15,875 nt of DNA from an uncultured bacterium. GTDB taxonomy: Bacteria; Lernaellota; Lernaellaia; Lernaellales; Lernaellaceae. Position 1 is the first letter of the stretch, and every line of letters starts with the position of its first letter. The stretch covers positions 1 to 15,875 of the forward strand of contig CAZHPN010000146.1 in the NCBI GenBank assembly GCA_964534375.1, given 5' to 3'. Positions 2,528 through 15,875 of this stretch are shown here, piece by piece. The notes under the pieces were generated by a model. The model searched no databases and had not been told where the DNA came from. It saw nothing but the letters and a program-made list of their open reading frames with translations. The position numbers and the translations under genes are program-made.

Positions 2528-3028
2528 TTGCTAATCTCGCTCGGTAAAATCGTCAAACCGCAAGGCCTGAAAGGCGAATTCCGCGTCTTTCCGCACGGCG
2601 GCCAATCCGAAAATCTCGCCGCTCTGGAACGTGTCACGATCGCCGAACCGAACGGCAAACAATGGGAAACGGCGATCCGTTCGTGCCGCGTCAAGGGCAG
2701 CCTGTATATCTTGTCGGTGCTCGGCGTCGACGTCATCGAACAGGCGGAGCGGCTGGTGGGCGGCGAAATCCTCGCCCGCGAGGAAGACCTCGAGCCGCTC
2801 GCCGAGGGCGAATTCTATTGGTACGAAGCCGTCGGCATGGAAGTCTACGCCGACGACGGCCGCCTTCTCGGCCGGGTGGCGTCGCTGCTCGCGACCGGCG
2901 CCAACGACGTGCTGCAGGTGCAGGACGGCGACCGCGAAATTCTTCTGCCGAATATCCCCGACGTGATTCTCCACGTCGACCGCGAACAAAAGCGGATCAC
3001 CGTGCGGCTGCTGCCCGGATTGATCTGA
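2528..3028 (+). CDS. rimM: 16S rRNA processing protein RimM
   Basis: TTG start; LGKIVKPQGLKGE...LAEGEFYWYEAVGMEV...TGANDVLQV...EILLP; N-terminal domain plus PRC barrel; conserved gene order. Confidence 0.96.
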   Translation: MLISLGKIVKPQGLKGEFRVFPHGGQSENLAALERVTIAEPNGKQWETAIRSCRVKGSLYILSVLGVDVIEQAERLVGGEILAREEDLEPLAEGEFYWYEAVGMEVYADDGRLLGRVASLLATGANDVLQVQDGDREILLPNIPDVILHVDREQKRITVRLLPGLI

Positions 3029-3154: not shown

Positions 3155-6169
<3,015 letters not shown>

Positions 6170-6804
6170 TCTTTTCTCCTTCGTGGCCATCAACCGGCCG
6201 GCTGGCGTTCCAGGTTATTTTCTGCTGCCTGATCCAGATTCGTTATTTTTCACCTTACCCGGCGATCCGCCCGTTGCGCATCCGGGTATTCCTGATTTTC
6301 AGTGTCAAAAAACCTCAAGCAGCGCCGTCCGACGCCCCCGCAACCCGAGATTGATCGGGTGCGAAGCGGCGGAGATTCGCTATTGTTCAAGACGCCTCCC
6401 ACAGGTGTCAGTTACTACATATCAAATCCCGCGGCGCCGCACAAGGCGCAAATAAAGAGTCGGGCCAGCGTCAGGAAAGTGGGCGTTCGTGAATACTGGA
6501 GGGAATTGGGGCTCGCGTGGAATACGTAGTGCAACAGGCCTTCGTTACGCCCTCGCCACGAAGTTGGAGAGGGGGTTGGGGGTGAGGACGAATTCATCGA
6601 CAGTCTCTACGCGAGGCATGCGACCTGTAGAGAATTTCGGGCGGCGCCGCCGATTCTTCATTCGCCATTCGCCATTCTACGTCGGCCGGCCCCGCGCCGA
6701 GCGAGCGGTTTGTTTGACCGTGCGGCCCGGCTTTGGTAAAAACGTCGTACGCGGTGCGGCAGCCGTTGATGCCGTCTGCCGTCAAAAGAAAAGGATGCCT
6801 CGCC

Positions 6805-8922
6805 GTGAAGCGCGTTCGTTGGTTTCTGTTCCGTTTGCCCACGATTATCTTGCTGGTCTGCGCGGTCGCCTGCAGCGGCGGCAAAAACACGACGATCAAC
6901 TACTACATCACGGACGATGACGGCTCGCCAGGCGACGATGACGGCTCGCCGGGCGACGACGACGGCTCGCCCGCCGACGACGACGGCTCGCCCGCCGACG
7001 ACGATCAGTCGCCGGGCGATGACGACGACGACGCCTCTGCGCCGCTGCATTGCAGCGCCGACGGAACCGTCTGCACCGACCCCTTCACCGGTCTGATGTG
7101 GCAGAACGGCGCGTCGGTCGGCGCCAACTATCTGGATTGGACGGCGGCGCAGAATTACTGCGCGGCCCTGACGTGGGGCGGCTACGGCGGCTGGCGCCTG
7201 CCGGGTCTCGATGAGTTGCGCAGCCTCATCCGGGGTTGCCCCGCCACGCAAACAGGCGGTTCCTGCGGGGTGACCGACGAGTGTTTGAGCTGGTCGGGTT
7301 GTGCGAATGAGACCTGCGGCGGGTGTCCTTACTTGGGCGGCCCCGGGACGGGCGGCGCCTACTGGCCGCCGGGAATGTCCGGCGCCGTCGGCGTTGTCTA
7401 TTGGTCGTCCTCAACGGTTGCCGACATCGGCAAGTACGTGTGGGAGGTCGGCTTCAACCTCGGCAATTTAAGCTACAACGCCCCCGGCTACGGCTTCTCC
7501 ACCCGCTGCGTGCGTGGGTCGCCGGACGACGACGACGACGACGCTTCGCCGGATGATGACGACGACGACGACACGTTCGCCTGCGACGTCGTTCATCCCG
7601 ATTCGACCGTCGGCCTGCTCTCCTGCCTGCCCGGCGCCGCCAACGGCTACACGCTGTTCGCGCCGTTCCTCGCGGAAACGACCTATCTCATCGACATGGT
7701 CGGGCGCGTCGTCCATACCTGGCCGAGCCAATACCTGCCCGGCGACGCCGTCTACCTGACGGAAACCGGCCAACTCTTGCGCACCGGCAACGTGCTCAAC
7801 GACAACTTTCCCGGCGGCGGGCAAGGCGGCATCGTGATGCTGCAGAATTGGGGCGGCGACGTAGCGTGGAGCTACGTTTTGTCCACCAGCGAGGTCTGCG
7901 CGCACCATGACGTGCGGATGCTGCCCAACGGCGACGTCTTGCTGATCGTGTGGGAGAAGATACCGGGGGCGGAGGCCGTGGCGGCGGGCCGCAATCCGAG
8001 CACCCTGCCCGCCGTCGGCTTGTGGGCCGATTACTATGTCGAGATCGCGCCGGTCGGGACGAACGACGCCGAAATCGTCTGGCTGTGGCGCGCCTGGGAC
8101 CACCTCATTCAAGACTACGACCCGACGCAGGCGAACTACGGCGTCGTCGCGGACCACCCGGAGTTGATCGACGTCAATTACGACGTGGTGTCGGGAACGG
8201 ACTGGATGCACACCAACAGCATCGACTACAACCCCGATTTCGATCAAATTCTCGTCAGCGTCCACGAGTTCAGCGAAGTGTGGGTGATCGACCACAGCAC
8301 GACGACGGCCGAAGCCGCGTCCCATAGCGGCGGCGCGTACGGCCGCGGCGGCGACTTGCTCTACCGCTGGGGCAATCCAACCACCTACCGTCAGACGTCA
8401 CCCGCGCAGGATTTCTACGAGCAGCACAACGCCCGCTGGGTCGCCGACGGCTTGCCGGGCGCCGGCCATATCACCGTCTTCAACAACGGCCTCGGCCGCC
8501 CGGCCGGCCAATATTCGTCGGCGGACGAATTCGCCCCGGCGGTGAATCCCGACGGCAGCTATCCGGCCGCCGATCCGGCGTACGCGCCGGCGAACCTGTT
8601 CTGGACTTTCGCCGCCACGCCCATGAACCGCATCTATTCGGCGGCCAAAGGCAGCGCCCAGCGCCTGGCCAACGGCAACACCTTGATCTGCGTCGGCGAC
8701 GCCGGCGCGATCATGGAAGTCACCCCGGCGGGGGCCGTCGTCTGGCAGTTTGTCAGCCCGGTCACCGAGGCCGGCGTCATCCCGCAGGGCACGCAAGTCC
8801 CCCTCGCCTTCGAAGGCCTGGCCAACATGACCTTCAGCGCTCACCGTTATGCGCCCGACTACCCCGGCCTCGCCGGCCAGGATTTGACGCCCGGCCCGTG
8901 TTTGGTCGAGCCCTGCGAGTGA
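6805..8922 (+). CDS. lipoprotein with DUF1566 (Lcl C-terminal) domain fused to an arylsulfotransferase (ASST-like beta-propeller) domain
   Basis: Probable GTG start at 6805 after AAGGA (ORF-track start 6733); lipobox AVAC. DUF1566 motifs TDPFTGLMWQ, WTAAQNYC, GWRLPGLDEL, YWSSS, RCVR (about 7066-7515). ASST motifs GYTLFAP, HHDVRMLPNG, DWMHTNSIDYNP, IDHSTTTAEAASHSGG, LLYRWGNP, QHNARW, SAQRLANGNTLIC. Confidence 0.85.
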   Translation: MKRVRWFLFRLPTIILLVCAVACSGGKNTTINYYITDDDGSPGDDDGSPGDDDGSPADDDGSPADDDQSPGDDDDDASAPLHCSADGTVCTDPFTGLMWQNGASVGANYLDWTAAQNYCAALTWGGYGGWRLPGLDELRSLIRGCPATQTGGSCGVTDECLSWSGCANETCGGCPYLGGPGTGGAYWPPGMSGAVGVVYWSSSTVADIGKYVWEVGFNLGNLSYNAPGYGFSTRCVRGSPDDDDDDASPDDDDDDDTFACDVVHPDSTVGLLSCLPGAANGYTLFAPFLAETTYLIDMVGRVVHTWPSQYLPGDAVYLTETGQLLRTGNVLNDNFPGGGQGGIVMLQNWGGDVAWSYVLSTSEVCAHHDVRMLPNGDVLLIVWEKIPGAEAVAAGRNPSTLPAVGLWADYYVEIAPVGTNDAEIVWLWRAWDHLIQDYDPTQANYGVVADHPELIDVNYDVVSGTDWMHTNSIDYNPDFDQILVSVHEFSEVWVIDHSTTTAEAASHSGGAYGRGGDLLYRWGNPTTYRQTSPAQDFYEQHNARWVADGLPGAGHITVFNNGLGRPAGQYSSADEFAPAVNPDGSYPAADPAYAPANLFWTFAATPMNRIYSAAKGSAQRLANGNTLICVGDAGAIMEVTPAGAVVWQFVSPVTEAGVIPQGTQVPLAFEGLANMTFSAHRYAPDYPGLAGQDLTPGPCLVEPCE
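6913..7017 (+). repeat. 21-bp coding tandem repeat x5 (DDD[G/Q]SP[G/A])
   Basis: GACGAYGACGGCTCGCCNGSC units read directly from the sequence. Confidence 0.9.
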
Positions 8923-8966: not shown

Positions 8967-9593
8967 TCAGCAATTGTTCAAGCAATTGAGCAGCGCCTGG
9001 GTTTGCGCGCTGGTCGGCGGACTCGAACACGGGTTGTCCGCGACGCACGTGGCGTTGCAATTCCAGAGCGTCGCGTTCTCGGACGCACACACGGCCTCCA
9101 GGTCCATCAGCGGGATCCAGTACGCGGTGGCCCCGGTGTTCGAGTAATTGCTGATGATGCCGCAGTAATAATAGTGGTACGCGGTTTCCTGGCAGCCCGA
9201 ACCGCCCGGGTCGCCCGGCCAGATGCAGTTGTTGAAGCAAGTTGACGAACAATTGGATTCGGTGGCGCATTTGGCGCAGCAGGCCCAGAACGGCGACAAC
9301 GAGGGGCTGCCGAGAAAGTGCTCGGAATCGACGCACCAGGCGGCCAAATCGGCCTGGTCCGCCTTGCTTCCGCTGTTTTCTTGCAGCGGCTCCCCGCACG
9401 CGGTGGCGAGCCAGCCGGCGAGAGTGGCGCAACTAGCTGCGGTGTCGTCGTTGTCGTCGTCGTCGCCGGATGGATGACCCGCCGAATCGTCGTCATCGTC
9501 GCCGTTGTTGAGGCTGTCGTTGCAAGCGAAGACGACGAAGGTCTGGAGCAGCGCCGCCGCCACGCCGAGGAACACCATCCGCCTTTTTCCCAT
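8967..9593 (-). CDS. Cys-rich lipoprotein of unknown function with poly-Asp linker
   Basis: GGAGGAGG RBS; MGKRR plus hydrophobic stretch and VFAC lipobox; Asp tracts; 17 further Cys in two similar halves. Confidence 0.8.
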   Translation of the reverse strand: MGKRRMVFLGVAAALLQTFVVFACNDSLNNGDDDDDSAGHPSGDDDDNDDTAASCATLAGWLATACGEPLQENSGSKADQADLAAWCVDSEHFLGSPSLSPFWACCAKCATESNCSSTCFNNCIWPGDPGGSGCQETAYHYYYCGIISNYSNTGATAYWIPLMDLEAVCASENATLWNCNATCVADNPCSSPPTSAQTQALLNCLNNC

Positions 9594-9629: not shown

Positions 9630-9658
9630 TGGATATCAGACTTCCGCCTGGCGGTCAA
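9630..9658 (-). promoter_or_regulatory. putative promoter for the 208-aa lipoprotein
   Basis: Minus strand TTGACC (9658-9653), 17 bp, TATCCA (9635-9630), preceded by TGn (extended -10). Confidence 0.4.
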
Positions 9659-9662
9659 GCCG

Positions 9663-9755
9663 GCGGCGGCGCGCCCGCGAAATTCCGCGCTTGACAATCA
9701 CCGCCGCGGCGGCGCGCCCGCGAAATTCCGCGCTTGACAATCACCGCCGCGGCGG
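9663..9755 (+). repeat. perfect 43-bp tandem duplication containing TTGACA
   Basis: GCGGCGGCGCGCCCGCGAAATTCCGCGCTTGACAATCACCGCC at 9663-9705 and 9706-9748, plus 7 bp of a third copy. Confidence 0.95.
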
Positions 9756-9762: not shown

Positions 9763-9933
9763 AAGTGTCAAGCAAACGGCCTACGCCATAGATTCGCCAC
9801 CCAGTTGCAGCCGTAAACGTGAAATGCGCTCCGTTCGCGCGCGCGAAAAGCAGGCGCGCGCGGAAGAGCCGAGTCACCGCCGCTCGGAAACCGCGCCGCG
9901 GTTTCCGGCAGGCGCCGCAACGGGAGGCGTCTC

Positions 9934-10383
9934 ATGTCGGAACGGATCAGGCAGAAGGGCGAGCCATCGCCGGAAAAGGTGGACCTGTCGCGCCGCAAAG
10001 CCCTAAAACAGATATTCACGTTCGGCGCCGGGGCGCTGGCCATGGTCGGCGGGGTCGTCCTCGCCGGCGGCTGCGCCGACAAGGAGTCTACGCCGGCGGC
10101 CATGGCCGGCTATTATTCCGACTACGATAATTATGCGAATTACTCCAATTACCACAATTCCGGCGGCCACTCGAACGGCGGCTACGGCAACGGCGGCGGC
10201 TACGGCAACGGCGGCTATGGCGACGGCTATGGCGACTATTGCGACGGCTACACCGACGGCTATTGTTGTTACGACAACTACAGCAACAGCTACGGCTGTT
10301 ACGGCAACTACGGCGACGGCTACGGCGACGGCTACGGCGACGGCTCCGCCGACGACACGGCACGACGCCGCCGGCCGCGATAG
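9934..10383 (+). CDS. Tat-signal lipoprotein with Tyr-x-Asp/Asn repeats; putative radical SAM-modified RiPP-like precursor
   Basis: GGAGG RBS; SRRKALK twin-arginine motif, hydrophobic h-region, AGGC lipobox (Cys47); core of residues 60-137 has 20 Tyr, 17 of them in Y-x-[DN]. Confidence 0.8.
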   Translation: MSERIRQKGEPSPEKVDLSRRKALKQIFTFGAGALAMVGGVVLAGGCADKESTPAAMAGYYSDYDNYANYSNYHNSGGHSNGGYGNGGGYGNGGYGDGYGDYCDGYTDGYCCYDNYSNSYGCYGNYGDGYGDGYGDGSADDTARRRRPR

Positions 10384-10391
10384 GGGGGGCC

Positions 10392-11138
10392 ATGAGATCG
10401 ACCGTCGCGCCGGCCCCGGCGGCCCAGAAAGCGGGCTTGGTTTCGCCTGACTCCAGCGCGGTGGGGATGGCGGGAAACGCGAAATCTTCCGTTCCTCGGC
10501 TCGGGAGGCCGCGCGGCAGGCGGCGGATGGCGGCGTGGCTCGCGCTGCTGTTGGGCGCTCTGGCGTTGCTGTCGCCGTTGGTGAAGCCCGGCCTCGCGTC
10601 GGCCGACGGTTACGCCGGTATTGATTTCGGCACGCTTTATCCGATCGGCCGGGGCGAGGTGACCTATTATCCGTTCGCCGGCCTGGATGTGGTCGTTTGC
10701 CCGGGCGTCGGCAACCAACGGGTGCTGGTCCTCGGCGCCATGTGGGGCAGCGGCGTTCTCGCGGAAAAAGCGAAGTTCCGCGATCCGAACACGCAGAATA
10801 TTTACCTGAAAAAGATCCACGGCCCGCTGCAAGAAGGACTGTTCGAGACCGGCTATGGCTATTTTTACCATTTTAGCCAGACTAGTCGCGGCTACGTTTA
10901 CGGTTTTTACCTGGGCGGGGGCGCCCGTGTCATGTACGAATACGCCGAAGCGACGGTTCCTCAGCAGCGCGGCGAGCGCCGCTTGAACCTTTCCGGCTTC
11001 GGCTTCGCGTTCGAACCCGGCCTGGGCTATCAGACGGAAGCAGGCTTCAATGTCCACCTGAGTTACTTGTTTTTCCCGACCGGCGCGAACACCGACGGGG
11101 CGATCACTTTGACCATCGGCGGCCTGTGGGGATTCTGA
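10392..11138 (+). CDS. putative small outer-membrane beta-barrel protein
   Basis: Start uncertain (ATG at 10392, 10467 or 10527); signal peptide WLALLLGALALLSPLVKPGLASA; alternating aromatic/Gly strands (GFYLGGGARVMY, GFGFAFEPGLGYQ, FNVHLSYLFF); ends ITLTIGGLWGF with a terminal Phe (beta-signal). Confidence 0.7.
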   Translation: MRSTVAPAPAAQKAGLVSPDSSAVGMAGNAKSSVPRLGRPRGRRRMAAWLALLLGALALLSPLVKPGLASADGYAGIDFGTLYPIGRGEVTYYPFAGLDVVVCPGVGNQRVLVLGAMWGSGVLAEKAKFRDPNTQNIYLKKIHGPLQEGLFETGYGYFYHFSQTSRGYVYGFYLGGGARVMYEYAEATVPQQRGERRLNLSGFGFAFEPGLGYQTEAGFNVHLSYLFFPTGANTDGAITLTIGGLWGF

Positions 11139-11147
11139 GCGGCGGGA

Positions 11148-11996
11148 ATGTTTGCCGGAAAAATCACGCGGTCCGTTTGCCGATGGCTGCTCGCCGCGTT
11201 GGCGTGCGGGCTGGCCGCCTGCGCCGGGCGCGCGGCGGTCGCCCCGAGCCCCGAGGCCGCCCCGTCGCCCGCGCCGGCATTCGAAAAGCCGCCGGCCACC
11301 CCCGCGGACCGCACGGAGCCGACGTTCTGGCTGAACCAGGGCGCGCAAACCGCCGCGACCGAGGACATGCGGCGCCTGGCCGGCGAGCTGGTGCCGCCGG
11401 GCCCGCGCGACGTGAACGGCCTCAAGTCAATCTACACCTGGATGAAGACGCATCTGCACGCGACGGCCGCCGGCGGCGCGAACATCGGGGCCGTCACCGC
11501 CGCCGACATCTACCATTCCCGCCAGGCGACCGGCTGCCATGATTGGGGCCTGCTGTTCGCCTCGTTGGCGCGCGAGGCCGGCTACCCGGTCCGGATGCTC
11601 GACACGTTTTCGGTGGACTGGCTGCGGCGCGGCGGCACGTCGCGCGTCGGGCACGTGTTCTTGGAAATCTACCTCGATCCCGTTGGCTGGAAGCTTATCG
11701 ATTCGACGCACGGTCTGTTCTTCCCCGCCTACCCCGGCGAGGCCGAATTCGTCACCGACGGCAAGATCGTATATTACGTGTGGCGCCGCGGCCTCGATTC
11801 GTGGGACATGGGGATCACCTCCAAGACGGCGTTAGACGCGCGCATGGATCACATGGCCAGGATGAATTCCTTCCCGCCGCCCGCCGAATTGGACCAGCGG
11901 TGGTTTCACGCCCGCGAACCGCTGGCCCCCGGCTTACGCCGGCGCGTCCCGGCCGCCGCGGCCGCCGCCGCGCCGTCCCCGGCCGCGAGGCCCTGA
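11148..11996 (+). CDS. transglutaminase-like (Cys-His-Asp) domain lipoprotein
   Basis: Lipobox LAAC; GCHDWGLLFASLAREAGYPVR (catalytic Cys), GHVFLEIYL (His), GWKLIDST (Asp); starts 9 bp after the barrel stop. Confidence 0.85.
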   Translation: MFAGKITRSVCRWLLAALACGLAACAGRAAVAPSPEAAPSPAPAFEKPPATPADRTEPTFWLNQGAQTAATEDMRRLAGELVPPGPRDVNGLKSIYTWMKTHLHATAAGGANIGAVTAADIYHSRQATGCHDWGLLFASLAREAGYPVRMLDTFSVDWLRRGGTSRVGHVFLEIYLDPVGWKLIDSTHGLFFPAYPGEAEFVTDGKIVYYVWRRGLDSWDMGITSKTALDARMDHMARMNSFPPPAELDQRWFHAREPLAPGLRRRVPAAAAAAAPSPAARP

Positions 11997-13091
11997 CCCG
12001 CAGGGGCCGCGCGCGCCAGACTGCGGCGGATCGAGGCACGTCTCAAAAAACAGGCGCAGTCCGTCGCACCAGTGCGTCTTGGCGAAAACGTCGCCGGATG
12101 AAAGATAGGCGTCGTTCGGACAGCCGCCGTGGCAGTAATCCCACCAGCGGCATTCGGCGCAATCGTGGCGCCGCAGGTAGTCCCCGCGCTGCCGCAGGCG
12201 CTGCTTGCCGGCCGACGCGAGCACGTGCGCGCTGTCGTCGCTGAACAAGTTGCCGCAGCGGAAGGCGTTCGAGTCGGTGAACCGGCCGCAGTTGTAAATC
12301 TCGCCGCTCGGCGCGACACCCACGTGCGTGTCCGCGCACCGCCCAGCGACGTCGCAGCACAAACTTTTGGGCGGGCCGCCGCCGCCCACGTACTGCCGCA
12401 ACGGCTCGAATTGCCCGCGCCCGCCGTCCGCCGCCGTCAGACCGTGAAGCTCCACCAGGAACCGGCCGTATTCCTCGGGCGTGATGTGCAGCGGCCCCGG
12501 CTCCTTGGCGCGCCCTTCCGAATAGAGCGGATTGATCCGAATCGACGGCCGGTCGGGCAAGTTGCGATAAAAATAATAGATCTTTTCCGCCTGAGCCAAA
12601 TGGCCGCGATGCAGCACGAGAATGACGCCGTAGCGAATCTTCCGCCGCTGCACAAAACGCAGGCCGTCCAACCAGCGGTCGTCATAGGACTCGCCGTTTC
12701 GCAGCAGCCGCACGCCGGGCGTCAGATCGTGCGAAGTGCCGATCGGCCGCCCGTGCAGCAGCTTCTCCAGCGCCGCCGCGAGCCGGTCGTCGAGCAGCGT
12801 CAGGTTGCTCTGGATCAGGTGCCCCACGCGCGAGCGGAGCGGGCCGAAAACCCGCGCCTCGAGGTCCGGCAGCATTTCGTAAAATTCGGGCCCCAACAGC
12901 AGCGGCTCGCCGCCGTGCCACGTGAAATCGACCGTGTCCTGCGGCGTCTCTTCCAGATAGCGCCGGAAAAACCGGAACAGCGCTTCGATGGTTTCCGGCG
13001 ACATGCGGCATGTTTGCTTGCCGGCGGTGAACGCCGAACAATAGCGGCAAGCGCCGTTGCACTCGTCAGTCGGCTTGACGATGACCTGCAT
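11934..13091 (-). CDS. radical SAM/SPASM domain protein (anSME-like peptide maturase family)
   Basis: True start MQVIVKPT (ATG at 13091). CNGACRYC (CxxxCxxC), FTWHGGEPLL, QSNLTLL; SPASM: CC-x5-C...GEIYNC...CAECRWWDYCHGGC-x17-C. Confidence 0.92.
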   Translation of the reverse strand: MQVIVKPTDECNGACRYCSAFTAGKQTCRMSPETIEALFRFFRRYLEETPQDTVDFTWHGGEPLLLGPEFYEMLPDLEARVFGPLRSRVGHLIQSNLTLLDDRLAAALEKLLHGRPIGTSHDLTPGVRLLRNGESYDDRWLDGLRFVQRRKIRYGVILVLHRGHLAQAEKIYYFYRNLPDRPSIRINPLYSEGRAKEPGPLHITPEEYGRFLVELHGLTAADGGRGQFEPLRQYVGGGGPPKSLCCDVAGRCADTHVGVAPSGEIYNCGRFTDSNAFRCGNLFSDDSAHVLASAGKQRLRQRGDYLRRHDCAECRWWDYCHGGCPNDAYLSSGDVFAKTHWCDGLRLFFETCLDPPQSGARGPCGSGPRGRGRRGGGRGGRDAPA

Positions 13092-13878
13092 CTTTGGCTC
13101 CGGCCTGCGCGCCGGTCCGGCGGCAGACCTCCGCGTCGAATTCGCGCATCTCCTCGCAAAACGGCGCGCCGCTCGCGCCGCCGAATTGGAAATACCCCTC
13201 GCAACAAAGAAACGCCGCGCAGACCGTGCACGGATGCCGCGCGCGAAACAAGCCGTTGACGAAGTCGCGCGGCTCGCGGTCCGGCCCGGCCGGCGCCGCA
13301 ACGCAGCGCCGCCCGTGCGTCAACTGCCCGCCGTCGTTCACGTAGCACGCCGCGTCGGGGCTCTCGTGATAGATCGTCCACAGCGTCGCGCGCCGCCGCA
13401 CGCCGTCCTGCTCCTTGATCGTCGCAAACGGCTCGATCCGCCCCGCGAGTTCGTCGTTGTACAGCTCGTAGAAATACGCCTCGCGAAAACCCTCCGCGTC
13501 GAAAGCCGCCGGATCCAGGCAATAGACGACCGCCCGCACGCCGAGCGACGCCAGCAACTTCAGGTGCGTCGCGTCCGCCCGAGTCGGGTCGACGAACAAA
13601 AGCTGCAGGCCCGTGTCTTTAATCAGGCGCAGCTGGTCCAGATAAGAATCGATCATCCCCGCGGCGTACCGAGCCGTCAGCCGGCGAAACCGCGGCGCCG
13701 TCCGCAACGCTTCCAGCGGCCCCGCCGCCGTCTCGAATTCCAGCCCGCAAACCGCCCGCGGAAACTCGACCGGCGCCTGCGCGAATTGCTTGAGGCTCGG
13801 GAACCGCACGTTCAATTCCAGCCCGGGTTCCTGCGCGAACCGGGCTAGGCCGGCAGCGGGGATGGACAGCGTTTTCAT
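13066..13878 (-). CDS. hypothetical protein with C-terminal SPASM-like Cys cluster and no radical SAM motif
   Basis: ATG at 13878 overlaps the upstream TGA (ATGA coupling); C-terminal HPCTVCAAFLCCEGYF...PFC; 3' end overlaps the next gene's start by 26 nt. Confidence 0.75.
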   Translation of the reverse strand: MKTLSIPAAGLARFAQEPGLELNVRFPSLKQFAQAPVEFPRAVCGLEFETAAGPLEALRTAPRFRRLTARYAAGMIDSYLDQLRLIKDTGLQLLFVDPTRADATHLKLLASLGVRAVVYCLDPAAFDAEGFREAYFYELYNDELAGRIEPFATIKEQDGVRRRATLWTIYHESPDAACYVNDGGQLTHGRRCVAAPAGPDREPRDFVNGLFRARHPCTVCAAFLCCEGYFQFGGASGAPFCEEMREFDAEVCRRTGAQAGAKDAGHRQAD

Positions 13879-14855
13879 GCGCGGCGCCTCGCGCGGGCGA
13901 TCGCGAAGGCCGTGCAGCCGCCGTGGCACTGGCCGCGCTTGTACTGGCGGCAACGGCCGCATTTTTCGTAGATTACCGCGGGTTCGCCGGCGAGTTCGTC
14001 GGCAATGCGCTTCTGAAAATGAGCGGTGATTTCGGGCAGCGAGCGGAATTGAAAAATGTCCGGCGCGGTGAACGCGGACAGCGGAAAACAGGGCCAGAGG
14101 TCCATGTTCGGGCCGATATCAATGATGACGTTGCAGACGAATTTCAATTGCGCGCGGCGGCGGTGCAGCGCGCCGAGCTGCTCGTCGGAAAACGCGCACA
14201 GCGGAAAACCGCAATCGAGGTCGATCCGCACGTCCTGCTCGTCGGCGGCGCGGGCGAACTCCGTCAGCCGGCGGCCGATTTCCTCATAGTCGCGCGGGTC
14301 GAGGTGCGCGTTGCGCCGGCCGACGATCGGCTGCGCGAGGCCGACGCGGATTGACTTCGCCAGGCGCCGCCGCTCGATCACGTCGAGCAGGAACGTCATC
14401 GAGAAATCGCGGCGGTAGATGTTGAAGCCGGGCATGCAAAATTCGCCGTAGGCCGCGAGAAAATCGTCGAGGCGCACCGCCTCCGCCGCGTCCCCGACCG
14501 ACGGCTCGTTGATATTGACGACGAACAGGAAGTTCTTGACGGCGCCGCGGTTGGCCGCGCGGAACAGCTCCGTCAGGTTCGCGCACTTGTCCGGCGCCAT
14601 GCTGCCGTTGGTGAACGCCCGCACCTGAAAACGCCGCAACAGCAGGTATTTGACAATCAGCGGAAAATCCGGGTGCAGCGTCGGTTCGCCGCCGAGCAGG
14701 GAAAACCGCTTGTGGCGCGACCGCGCGAAGAAGTCCGCCAGGTAGATGATGTTGTCCAGGCTCATGAAATGCTCGGCGCCGTCCGTCAGTTTCTCGCGGG
14801 CGAAGCAATACGGACAGGCGCGCGTGCATTTGTCGGTGAGCAGAACGTTGGGCAT
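13875..14855 (-). CDS. radical SAM protein with C-terminal auxiliary Cys (SPASM/twitch-like) motifs
   Basis: CTRACPYC, LLGGEPTLHP, FTNG; LDCGFPLC, CNVIIDIGPNMDLWPCFPL, CGRCRQYKRGQCHGGC; AGGA RBS. Confidence 0.92.
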   Translation of the reverse strand: MPNVLLTDKCTRACPYCFAREKLTDGAEHFMSLDNIIYLADFFARSRHKRFSLLGGEPTLHPDFPLIVKYLLLRRFQVRAFTNGSMAPDKCANLTELFRAANRGAVKNFLFVVNINEPSVGDAAEAVRLDDFLAAYGEFCMPGFNIYRRDFSMTFLLDVIERRRLAKSIRVGLAQPIVGRRNAHLDPRDYEEIGRRLTEFARAADEQDVRIDLDCGFPLCAFSDEQLGALHRRRAQLKFVCNVIIDIGPNMDLWPCFPLSAFTAPDIFQFRSLPEITAHFQKRIADELAGEPAVIYEKCGRCRQYKRGQCHGGCTAFAIARARRRA

Positions 14856-15444: not shown

Positions 15445-15875
15445 CCCGAAGTTCCCCGTCGATTTCGCGCTAGAGATTTCATAAAGAACTGTAGGAACGA
15501 GGAGTTGTCACCGTTCGTGCGGCGGCAAATGTAGCCAGAATAATATGGGACTAGCGCTTGACATGAAATTGAATATATTGAAGTTAGCGGTTATGAAAAC
15601 AAAAATCACGGCGTGTCATGTAGCCAGAGTGTCCCGCCGCCAGAACGGCAAGCTCTACACCTCGGTGTTGCTTCGACGCACCTATCGCGAGGGCGGCAAA
15701 GTCAAGCACCAAACCCTGGGCTCGCTCACCGGCCTGCCCGAGACGGCGATCGAAGCCTTGCGCCGGTCGCTCAATGGCGAGGAGCTGATCCCGGCGGATG
15801 AGGCCTTCGGCATTGAGCGTTCGACGCCGCACGGCCACGTGCGGGCGGTGCTGGGCACGATCAAACGCCTGGGGC
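15445..15875 (+). mobile_element. IS1634-family insertion sequence, left part (runs off the window)
   Basis: Transposase ORF from 15593; shift to AT-rich sequence; candidate left end CCCGAAGTTCC at 15445, uncertain because the right end is not visible. Confidence 0.7.
15593..15875 (+). CDS. IS1634-family transposase, N-terminal 94 aa (partial)
   Basis: Manual translation: MKTKITACHVARVSRRQNGKLYTSVLLRRTYREGGKVKHQTLGSLTGLPETAIEALRRSLNGEELIPADEAFGIERSTPHGHVRAVLGTIKRLG. LLRRTYREGGKVKH and PHGHVxAV are typical of IS1634 N-termini; absent from the ORF track because it has no stop in the window. Confidence 0.85.
   Translation, partial: MKTKITACHVARVSRRQNGKLYTSVLLRRTYREGGKVKHQTLGSLTGLPETAIEALRRSLNGEELIPADEAFGIERSTPHGHVRAVLGTIKRLG

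Follow-up and report, generated by a model that had tools for sequence, protein, structure and literature searches.

The maturation of ribosomally synthesised peptides with post-translational modifications (RiPPs) by radical S-adenosylmethionine (SAM) enzymes is well known and almost always concerns short peptides accompanied by an RRE domain and a dedicated exporter. Triceptide maturases are anSME-like radical SAM/SPASM enzymes without an RRE domain, which act on repeated aromatic-x-x motifs in Gly-rich precursors. DynA and DarE, the maturases of dynobactin and darobactin, form aromatic cross-links in short Trp-containing precursors which are encoded together with exporters, and QhpD is an anSME-like radical SAM/SPASM enzyme which cross-links a small protein, the gamma-subunit of quinohemoprotein amine dehydrogenase, in the cytoplasm, after which the protein passes to the periplasm. 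The present work deals with a 15,875-bp stretch of DNA from an uncultured bacterium of the Lernaellaceae (contig CAZHPN010000146.1), hereafter called the window, and with four of its genes, which belong to a widespread and apparently undescribed system in which two radical SAM enzymes and a degenerate partner protein probably modify a Tyr-rich exported repeat protein.

The nearest published architecture is the HXS system (Nat Commun 2026, PMC13128918), comprising the radical SAM enzymes HxsB and HxsC, HxsD, and the exported protein HxsA, whose His-x-Ser repeats are modified in the cytoplasm and whose function as the mature product lies in the periplasm. Both systems have two radical SAM enzymes, an accessory protein and an exported tripeptide-repeat substrate. 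The window differs in that the cut-offs of HxsB (TIGR03978, 37.4 bits for the 385-aa and 15.3 bits for the 326-aa protein versus 370) and HxsC (TIGR03977, 18.6 bits for the 326-aa protein versus 267.9) are missed, that the repeats are Tyr-x-[S/N/D/Y] and not His-x-Ser, and that the accessory protein is a 270-aa protein with a radical SAM fold, the leader resembles a twin-arginine translocation (Tat) signal, and there is no peptidoglycan-binding domain. Full-text searches of the literature, with subscription-only papers and bioRxiv supplements outside their reach, gave no description of such a cassette, and neither did a term search of the radical SAM RiPP compendium (PMC10288494). What is unusual here is the Tat-like leader, the inactive partner which retains its fold and the frequent coupling to a family 9 glycosyltransferase (GT9), whereas radical SAM maturation of an exported repeat protein is known. 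The four genes and the presumed substrate region are the following.

9934..10383, plus strand: precursor of 149 aa, taken from the list of open reading frames (ORFs) and recognised by the leader hidden Markov model (HMM), with a GGGAGG site before its ATG
10111..10341, plus strand: Tyr-rich Gly/Asp/Asn core of the precursor, Y60 to D136, the presumed substrate region, delimited from the sequence
11934..13091, minus strand: anSME-like radical SAM/SPASM enzyme of 385 aa with C11-x3-C15-x2-C18 (PF04055, 41.6 bits versus a cut-off of 29.5)
13066..13878, minus strand: partner protein of 270 aa with C217-x2-C220-x5-C226...C241, described from its alignment and predicted fold
13875..14855, minus strand: radical SAM enzyme of 326 aa with C10-x3-C14-x2-C17 (PF04055, 55.2 bits versus a cut-off of 29.5)

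The preferred reading, to which we give a probability of about 0.6, is that the regions 9934–10383 and 11934–14855 belong to a maturation cassette whose enzymes act on the core of the precursor in the cytoplasm, before Tat exports the product and cleavage takes place at C47. An earlier note on this DNA had described six tightly packed genes in two convergent blocks, and all six ORFs were found again, with unchanged coordinates, in the ORF list and in the sequence itself. On the minus strand, the gene of the 326-aa enzyme (14855–13875) and the start of the partner gene overlap by 4 nt (ATGA), and the partner gene (13878–13066) overlaps the start of the radical SAM/SPASM gene (13091) by 26 nt; the two convergent blocks share 63 nt at their 3′ ends (11934–11996). 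The note had also recognised two radical SAM enzymes, the one at 11934–13091 with a SPASM domain, which was confirmed by Pfam and NCBIfam, and a Cys cluster in the protein between them, which proved to be real and conserved among 39 sequences.

Much of the evidence for this reading comes from relatives. A set of 80 genome loci was fetched via the alignment of relatives of the 326-aa enzyme, with the partner called by HMM at E<=1e-5 and a strict precursor defined by a leader HMM score of at least 17 bits together with a tail containing at least 8% Tyr. The partner is present in 49 of the 80 loci. The SPASM enzyme was found in 43 of these 49 partner-positive loci versus one of the 31 partner-negative ones (L064), and a strict precursor in 36 of 49 versus one of 31 (L023, which is cut right after the radical SAM gene). 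The neighbourhood pattern which the earlier note had proposed to look for, a Tat-signal Tyr-rich protein encoded beside relatives of the enzymes, is thus found. When precursors recognised by eye are included, the number of precursor-bearing loci rises to about 42 of 49: L005, L008, L014, L046 and L062 contain a Tyr-rich ORF with a variant leader, and L034 is cut inside the leader. In L030 there is a leader-bearing precursor variant that lacks the hydrophobic stretch; L042 is cut immediately behind the SPASM gene. Six partner-positive loci have no SPASM enzyme, with L019, L048 and L058 being short loci. A tblastn search with the window proteins revealed a homologue of the 385-aa enzyme in 49 of the 80 loci, and weak partner matches between the two enzymes in 19 loci. 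In L020, L022 and L027 the precursor gave matches immediately upstream of the radical SAM gene.

The gene order is radical SAM, partner, SPASM in 40 loci, with a steady gap of about 900 bp. L033 and L062 have precursor(s), SPASM, partner, radical SAM, and L076 has radical SAM, SPASM, partner. A precursor can be found upstream or downstream, and in L006, L049 and L050 it is encoded on the opposite strand, as in the window. The fact that the three genes stay together despite these changes of order, with a similar small ORF nearby, indicates that they form one system. The four-part set recurs across phyla in several gene orders, including Fibrobacterota, Bacteroidota, Spirochaetota, Acidobacteriota, Nitrospirota, Planctomycetota, Elusimicrobiota, Thermodesulfobacteriota and others, which agrees with the proposal of the note that the precursor and the three minus-strand genes belong together. 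Its wider proposal of a six-gene system did not hold, as the barrel and transglutaminase genes of the plus-strand block were found by tblastn in none of the 80 loci. Its remark that no exporter and no PqqD/RRE gene is visible was upheld: the six products gave no such match (PqqD PF05402 was matched by none of them), and no ABC/PCAT exporter recurs among the scanned ORFs flanking the trio in relatives. The 326-aa family, the partner and the precursor have no model in either NCBIfam (June 2026) or Pfam. In L073, labelled as a metagenome-assembled genome of Candidatus Thorarchaeota, the radical SAM, partner, SPASM, GT9 and Tyr-rich precursor genes are all present; gene transfer or a binning error could be the source of this cassette.

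The window precursor, which found no match in Pfam and NCBIfam, consists of the motif S19-R20-R21-K-A-L-K-Q-I, a 20-residue hydrophobic stretch, L-A-G-G-C47, the Tyr-rich core and a basic tail. The 77-residue core contains 20 Tyr, 22 Gly, 10 Asn, 9 Asp and 4 Cys, and Y-x-[D/N] triplets hold 17 of the 20 Tyr. Shuffled cores gave a mean of 5.1 (standard deviation 1.7), with none of 10,000 reaching 17, so the enrichment is real and an effect of composition is excluded. In 40 precursors, the residue at Y+2 is mostly S, Y, N or D. Tyr is the sole residue common to all the cores, making up 34.7% of core residues; many precursors are Ser-rich or have paired Cys, and many other cores have no Cys. The sulfatase motif C/S-x-P-x-R was not seen in the precursor sequences inspected. 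Locus L033 (3520–4820) has two adjacent precursors with repeats of the form CGYCDG.GRDY.HCDG.YCDYINY.D and with 8 and 16 Cys, which look like a Cys-rich elaboration of the DYCDGY and GYCCYD motifs of the window; the same locus also has two SPASM enzymes.

For comparison of the leaders, 32 precursors, namely that of the window and 31 from relatives, were aligned, and they proved to be alignable in the leader only. R20 is invariant, R21 and A23 are at least 90% conserved, and the RR pair is retained in 31 of the 32 sequences; the consensus is [ST]RRxA[LIM]K[RQ]I[AS] followed by the hydrophobic stretch. When the leader HMM was run against the 6.3-Mb genome, the window precursor scored 31.2 bits as the single such match, and the next ones, at 17.1 bits or less, were ordinary Tat signals of iron-sulfur (Fe-S) and molybdoenzyme-like proteins. 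Although Tat-like, the leader shows greater specificity than a Tat signal, suggesting that it is also read by the enzymes. In L030 (6662–6832) and L048 (frame 2817–3009) the leader TRREA[TM]KRIA is kept and the hydrophobic stretch is absent, the sequence continuing as ...KRIAE[KR]P.. TYMGKVVDVT.GQGGDSKDYGGYCIPV; neither the full-length locus L030 nor the short locus L048 has a SPASM homologue, and both have the partner and a GT9 match. A leader kept without the hydrophobic stretch again suggests that it is read by the enzymes and not by Tat alone.

In the spirochaete loci L015, L004 and L054, the precursor is followed by tatC (TatC 150 bits versus a cut-off of 132.7). In L015, the one locus examined for tatA, this gene lies between the two, the order being precursor (10014–10265), tatA (10298–10486), tatC and then a gene for a 566-aa protein with a TatB-like N-terminus (TIGR01410, 22.2 bits, below the cut-off) and a third radical SAM domain. 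A protein of 543–566 aa ends the tat segment in L015 (10014–12912), L004 (3702–6662) and L054 (9961–12859). The location of tatC, in L015 together with tatA, beside the precursor in the three spirochaete loci fits export by Tat and is the strongest argument for it; the window genome has two tatC genes.

The 385-aa enzyme is recognised as a SPASM protein by TIGR04085 (50.5 bits versus 27), with PF13186 remaining below its cut-off (18.1 versus 21.5). Its full-length matches, all far below the cut-offs, are DynA NF041298, the top NCBIfam match (146.9 bits versus 450), anSME TIGR03942 (143.4 bits versus 349.45) and TIGR04083 (122.1 bits), and its closest solved sequence relative is anSME (PDB 4k36, E 2e-18, full length). 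Both enzymes of the window begin at the SAM-cluster motif, so there is no N-terminal RRE in the 385-aa enzyme. It resembles the triceptide maturases in being an RRE-less anSME-like enzyme encoded together with a core composed of successive Y-x-[D/N] triplets. It does not belong to GrrM/OscB (TIGR04261, 57.4 bits over the N-terminal half only, cut-off 310), XyeB (TIGR04496, 62 bits versus 450), FxsB (TIGR04269, 40.1 bits versus 370), YhhB (58.4 bits versus 445) or AmcB (82.8 bits versus 425), and the cut-offs of DynA and anSME are missed too; the enzyme is anSME-like and no triceptide family includes it. Unlike triceptide systems, the cassette has a second radical SAM enzyme, a partner with a radical SAM fold and without the SAM cluster, a Tat-like leader and a protein-sized substrate (149 aa here, more than 200 aa elsewhere) which is often lipobox-bearing.

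The likeness to anSME lies in the modification of a protein in the cytoplasm before export, as proposed for the cassette; the differences are the score of the enzyme, the lack of any sulfatase family among the window proteins and the sulfatase motif not seen. QhpD is more distant (TIGR03906, 52.3 bits versus 453), and the window has no dehydrogenase subunits and another substrate. The short Trp-containing precursors and exporters of the DynA and DarE systems were not seen here either.

A quick maximum-likelihood tree of 44 SPASM enzymes, with long branches in the clade of the window, placed the window enzyme together with those of L033 (Planctomycetota), L062 (labelled 'delta proteobacterium') and L076 (support 99). 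The precursors of L033 and L062 have Gly/Asp-rich Y-x-D repeats with Cys or a lipobox, as in the window, and the remaining 40 SPASM enzymes pair with Ser-, Asn- or Tyr-dominated cores. Mapping the precursor classes on this tree required 17 changes versus a shuffle mean of 26.4, with none of 200 shuffles as low, a contrast which is inflated by kinship. Since the Gly/Asp clade crosses phyla and the enzyme subtype tracks the precursor type, the SPASM enzyme is pointed to as the reader of the core. A gene for a GT9 glycosyltransferase of about 300 aa (PF01075, 23–45 bits versus 22) is located 3′ of the SPASM gene; tblastn found it in 26 of the 49 loci with the partner and in one of the 31 without it (L040), while the window and the clade loci L033, L062 and L076 lack it.

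The 326-aa enzyme has, besides its SAM-cluster motif, eight more conserved Cys (215, 220, 241, 256, 299, 302, 310 and 314 in an alignment of 20 sequences), which suggests a compact SPASM-like domain, although the SPASM profiles TIGR04085 and PF13186 gave no match. Only generic N-terminal halves of viperin, MoaA and other proteins were matched. The enzyme has more than 500 full-length homologues at about 40–45% identity (567 at E<=0.001 among 8,000 candidates scored), in Chitinivibrionales, Elusimicrobia, Thermodesulfobacteriota, Isosphaeraceae, Gemmatimonadota, Terracidiphilus and others, and is present in one copy in the window genome. Judged from these comparisons, it is the founding member of a large family without a curated model. 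Several of the more distant relatives, which are without the partner (among L066–L081, and L053), have an ORF of 86–110 aa directly upstream, about 300 bp before the radical SAM gene, and one of nine such ORFs tested (L071) reaches the Pfam PqqD cut-off.

The partner has no CX3CX2C motif and no match to PF04055 or to any other Pfam or NCBIfam model, and Pfam was likewise blank for the 39 family members. A word-index homology search returned only the protein itself, and an exhaustive HMMER search gave 10 matches, five of which (273–303 aa) look like true relatives. As these searches gave too few relatives, the family was gathered from gene neighbourhoods, where proteins of about 285 aa are encoded between the radical SAM and SPASM genes. 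The resulting 39 sequences are 13–22% identical to the window protein, with S111, C217, C220 and C226 invariant and C241 conserved in about 90%. Profile-profile comparison with the 326-aa family found nothing, and a search of the family profile against PDB sequences found nothing meaningful. The AlphaFold2 model built from the family alignment has a predicted local distance difference test score (pLDDT) of 85.7 and a predicted template modelling score of 0.82. Foldseek gave weak TIM-barrel-like rows against PDB, none below E 1e-3. VIA-align against 48,161 chains put anSMEcpe on top (4k36, Z 11.3, 245 of 270 residues, root-mean-square deviation 4.0), followed by ChlB (Z 10.3), TigE (9.9) and CteB (9.6), all radical SAM/SPASM enzymes; best Z values of 7 to 8 are typical where no clear Foldseek match exists, and the top four exceed this and span the whole chain. 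anSME, the closest solved relative of the 385-aa enzyme, is thereby also the best structural match of the partner. The model predicts with confidence a radical SAM/SPASM fold for the partner, which has probably lost SAM chemistry and kept one auxiliary Fe-S cluster site, and its role may be substrate or leader binding, scaffolding or electron transfer. A complex prediction of the partner with precursor residues 8–75 scored 0.00 in a run without controls and weighs neither way.

Taken together, the preferred cassette would function as follows. The 149-aa precursor would be made in the cytoplasm with a leader by which the enzymes recognise it and which is at the same time a twin-arginine signal. 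The two Fe-S radical SAM enzymes, together with the catalytically degenerate partner and its one four-Cys site, would modify the Y-x-[D/N] triplets of the core; the likeliest chemistry would be triceptide-type cross-links from the aromatic residue to C-beta made by the anSME-like enzyme, with the 326-aa enzyme adding a second modification. The modified and hence bulky product would leave via Tat, and the signal would be cut at the lipobox-like Cys47 to give a membrane-anchored envelope polypeptide. Within this frame, the formation of triceptide-like Tyr-to-C-beta cross-links at Y-x-[D/N] is put forward tentatively, at somewhat below even odds.

Several observations weigh against this reading. 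A strict precursor is lacking in 13 of the 49 partner-positive loci; no Tyr-rich ORF was found in L013, L026, L028 and L076, and the sole candidate in L068 is an ORF poor in Tyr whose leader match is weak (16.7 bits). The loci share ancestry, and the counts describe a family and not independent trials. In the window, unlike in most relatives, the precursor lies 1.5 kb away from the enzymes and on the other strand. Many relatives' cores have Tyr spacings other than three, and with Y+2 varying among S, N, D and Y a uniform Y-x-[D/N] cyclophane is no family-wide rule. Pfam TAT_signal matched one of the 32 precursors (E 0.039), and the assignment to Tat rests on the RR motif, the hydrophobic region and tatAC linkage in 3 of 49 loci. 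The window lipobox L-A-G-G-C47 is one residue off the classical [LVI][ASTVI][GAS]C; with a permissive pattern a lipobox-like Cys was found in only 12 of the 32 precursors, the remainder having Ala-x-Ala-like ends, so lipid anchoring is not a family trait. Finally, neither enzyme reaches a curated cut-off beyond the generic radical SAM/SPASM models, and the chemistry is therefore not predictable from family membership.

This last point leaves room for the same architecture with another chemistry, be it anSME-type C-H oxidation, epimerisation, hydroxylation, Cys thioether formation or Tyr-Tyr coupling, which we consider unlikely on the whole but worth the most attention among the alternatives. 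The best matches of the 385-aa enzyme are evenly split between DynA and anSME (146.9 versus 143.4 bits), anSME is its only solved sequence relative, and the 326-aa enzyme has no informative relative; moreover, precursors which are Ser-rich or have paired Cys are numerous and the window core has four Cys. Tyr is, however, the one residue shared by all the cores, many of which have no Cys, and the C/S-x-P-x-R motif was not seen in the precursor sequences inspected.

The preferred cassette can also be extended into a joint reading, which as a whole is speculative and should be regarded as doubtful. According to it, the precursors would form a class of Tat-dependent, radical SAM-matured poly-tyrosine envelope proteins in which the Tat signal doubles as a RiPP-style leader. 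The dead partner with a radical SAM fold would replace an RRE or proofread export, and only the cross-linked and mostly GT9-glycosylated product would reach the Tat pore. In spirochaetes, the dedicated TatA/TatC set and the fusion of a TatB-like segment with a radical SAM domain would serve as the route.

The tripeptide repeats, two radical SAM enzymes, accessory protein and export signal shared with the HXS system might also be taken to mean that the product is a periplasmic envelope defence effector like HxsA, acting for instance against phage entry. This is improbable, given the low scores of the HxsB and HxsC models, the generic viperin-like N-terminal matches which were all that PADLOC yielded, a precursor without a peptidoglycan-binding domain, a core which is acidic and neutral with repeats that are not basic, and no defence genes seen nearby.

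The next alternative involves the two further genes of the plus-strand block.

10527..11138 (alternative start 10392), plus strand: orphan secreted protein of 203 aa ending in ...LWGF, a plausible small outer-membrane beta-barrel
11148..11996, plus strand: transglutaminase-core lipoprotein of 282 aa with a signal ending in L-A-A-C (PF01841, 34.2 bits versus a cut-off of 23)

Behind the stop of the precursor gene at 10383 comes an ORF with 10392 or 10527 as its start and 11138 as its end; the transglutaminase gene follows from 11148, so that the gaps are 9–10 nt, or up to 143 nt if the barrel gene starts at 10527. The beta-barrel label given in the earlier note is weakly supported: a single-sequence model is all-beta, and language-model neighbours fall in TraO and OMP_b-brl clusters (0.96–0.97), yet the model is poor (pLDDT 42, too poor to search with), a word-index search gave no homologue, and Pfam and NCBIfam gave no match. 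The label of a transglutaminase-like lipoprotein holds, as shown by the PF01841 score; the triad can be recognised by eye in the Cys of TGCHDWG, the His of GHVFLE and the Asp of KLIDS, and atlas neighbours have PF01841 in 98–100% of members. Neither of the two proteins, nor any other window lipoprotein, had a tblastn match in the 80 related loci, and judged from these sequence comparisons both genes are local accessories outside the conserved system. Their tight spacing with the precursor gene suggests co-transcription and a local role: the transglutaminase-like lipoprotein may possibly be a periplasmic protease or a cross-linker acting on the exported product, and, in this organism alone, the two proteins may serve to process the product or to retain it.

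Transglutaminase-like folds often act as proteases. In this genome, then, the precursor could be a multi-core source of diffusible peptides, with units excised by the transglutaminase-like lipoprotein and released by the barrel, for which the close spacing of the three plus-strand genes (9–10 nt, or up to 143 nt with start 10527) and the Cys, His and Asp of the transglutaminase core speak. It is quite improbable in view of the confinement of both genes to the window among the 80 related loci, of the scan of trio-flanking ORFs in relatives, in which no protease family recurs, and of the lipobox-like Cys, which argues for a retained product.

Contigs from RNA libraries (four libraries, two studies) match pieces of five genes, namely those of the precursor, barrel, transglutaminase, SPASM enzyme and 326-aa enzyme, at 99–100% identity, with the precursor covered at 9981–10156, 10222–10409 and 10279–10419. 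The region 12318–14028, which includes the partner gene, is almost bare of such contigs, although contig gaps prove nothing. These matches are a weak hint at expression, as DNA carry-over may be present. A chance neighbourhood, in which the Tyr-rich ORF of the window is unrelated to the radical SAM genes or is no gene at all, as its opposite strand, the two unrelated genes in between, its low-complexity sequence and a G+C-rich genome full of spurious ORFs might suggest, is highly improbable when set against a leader that matches the profile from precursors of other phyla with 31.2 bits as the single such match in the genome, the GGGAGG site before the ATG, the RNA-library contigs on the precursor and the opposite-strand precursors of L006, L049 and L050.

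Returning to the preferred cassette, the unusual position of its precursor in the window can be viewed in the light of the surrounding DNA, in which three further features were noted.

9645..9730, plus strand: direct repeats of 43 nt, two in tandem and 81% alike, located upstream of the precursor gene, with TTGACA in the second copy
9878..9914, plus strand: inverted repeat with 18-nt arms, 83% complementary, just 5′ of GGGAGG and the ATG at 9934
15545..15875, plus strand: 5′ part of a DDE transposase gene which continues past the contig end, upstream of the radical SAM operon at a distance of about 690 bp

The transposase gene is complete in an identical metagenome contig (L092:1–987, minus strand; PF01609, 23.9 bits versus 23). 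A transposase near the operon fits a rearrangement that displaced the precursor from its usual place, and such a rearrangement may explain its position. The window is a divergent Gly/Asp-rich subtype with a rearranged gene order and a transposase upstream. The direct repeats are a possible promoter region or duplication and the inverted repeat a possible 5′ hairpin. A promoter scan gave no consensus site at the direct repeats, the promoter and terminator scans did not beat shuffles, and an Rfam scan of the window gave no match.

Besides the six genes, the window contains ffh, rpsP, a KH-domain gene and rimM, together with three lipoproteins with Asp-rich linkers. The first of these (3155–6193, minus strand), a lipoprotein of 1012 aa for which Pfam gave no family, has a long linker rich in Asp, Ser and Pro (DDDSSPDDD...), and its Cys-rich repeats, about 30 in number, follow the pattern C..GCC.. 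G.C..G....CG..G..C..C. The second (6733–8922, plus strand) has Lcl_C (DUF1566-like) and arylsulfotransferase propeller domains, and the third (8967–9593, minus strand) is a Cys-rich lipoprotein of 208 aa to which no family was assigned.

As to what the cassette would mean, a Tat-like signal on protein-sized substrates would explain why no dedicated exporter is needed, and the cassette would tie Fe-S radical chemistry to the one export path open to cargo that is finished and bulky. Three of its protein families are uncharacterised, namely those of the 326-aa enzyme, of the partner which retains its fold and of the precursor. At least one candidate host comes from a cultured genus, as locus L052, with two precursors and the GT9 gene, is labelled Draconibacterium orientale. 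Should the products be envelope polymers of poly-Tyr, cross-linked or glycosylated, many anaerobes would have a cell-surface component that has gone unrecognised.

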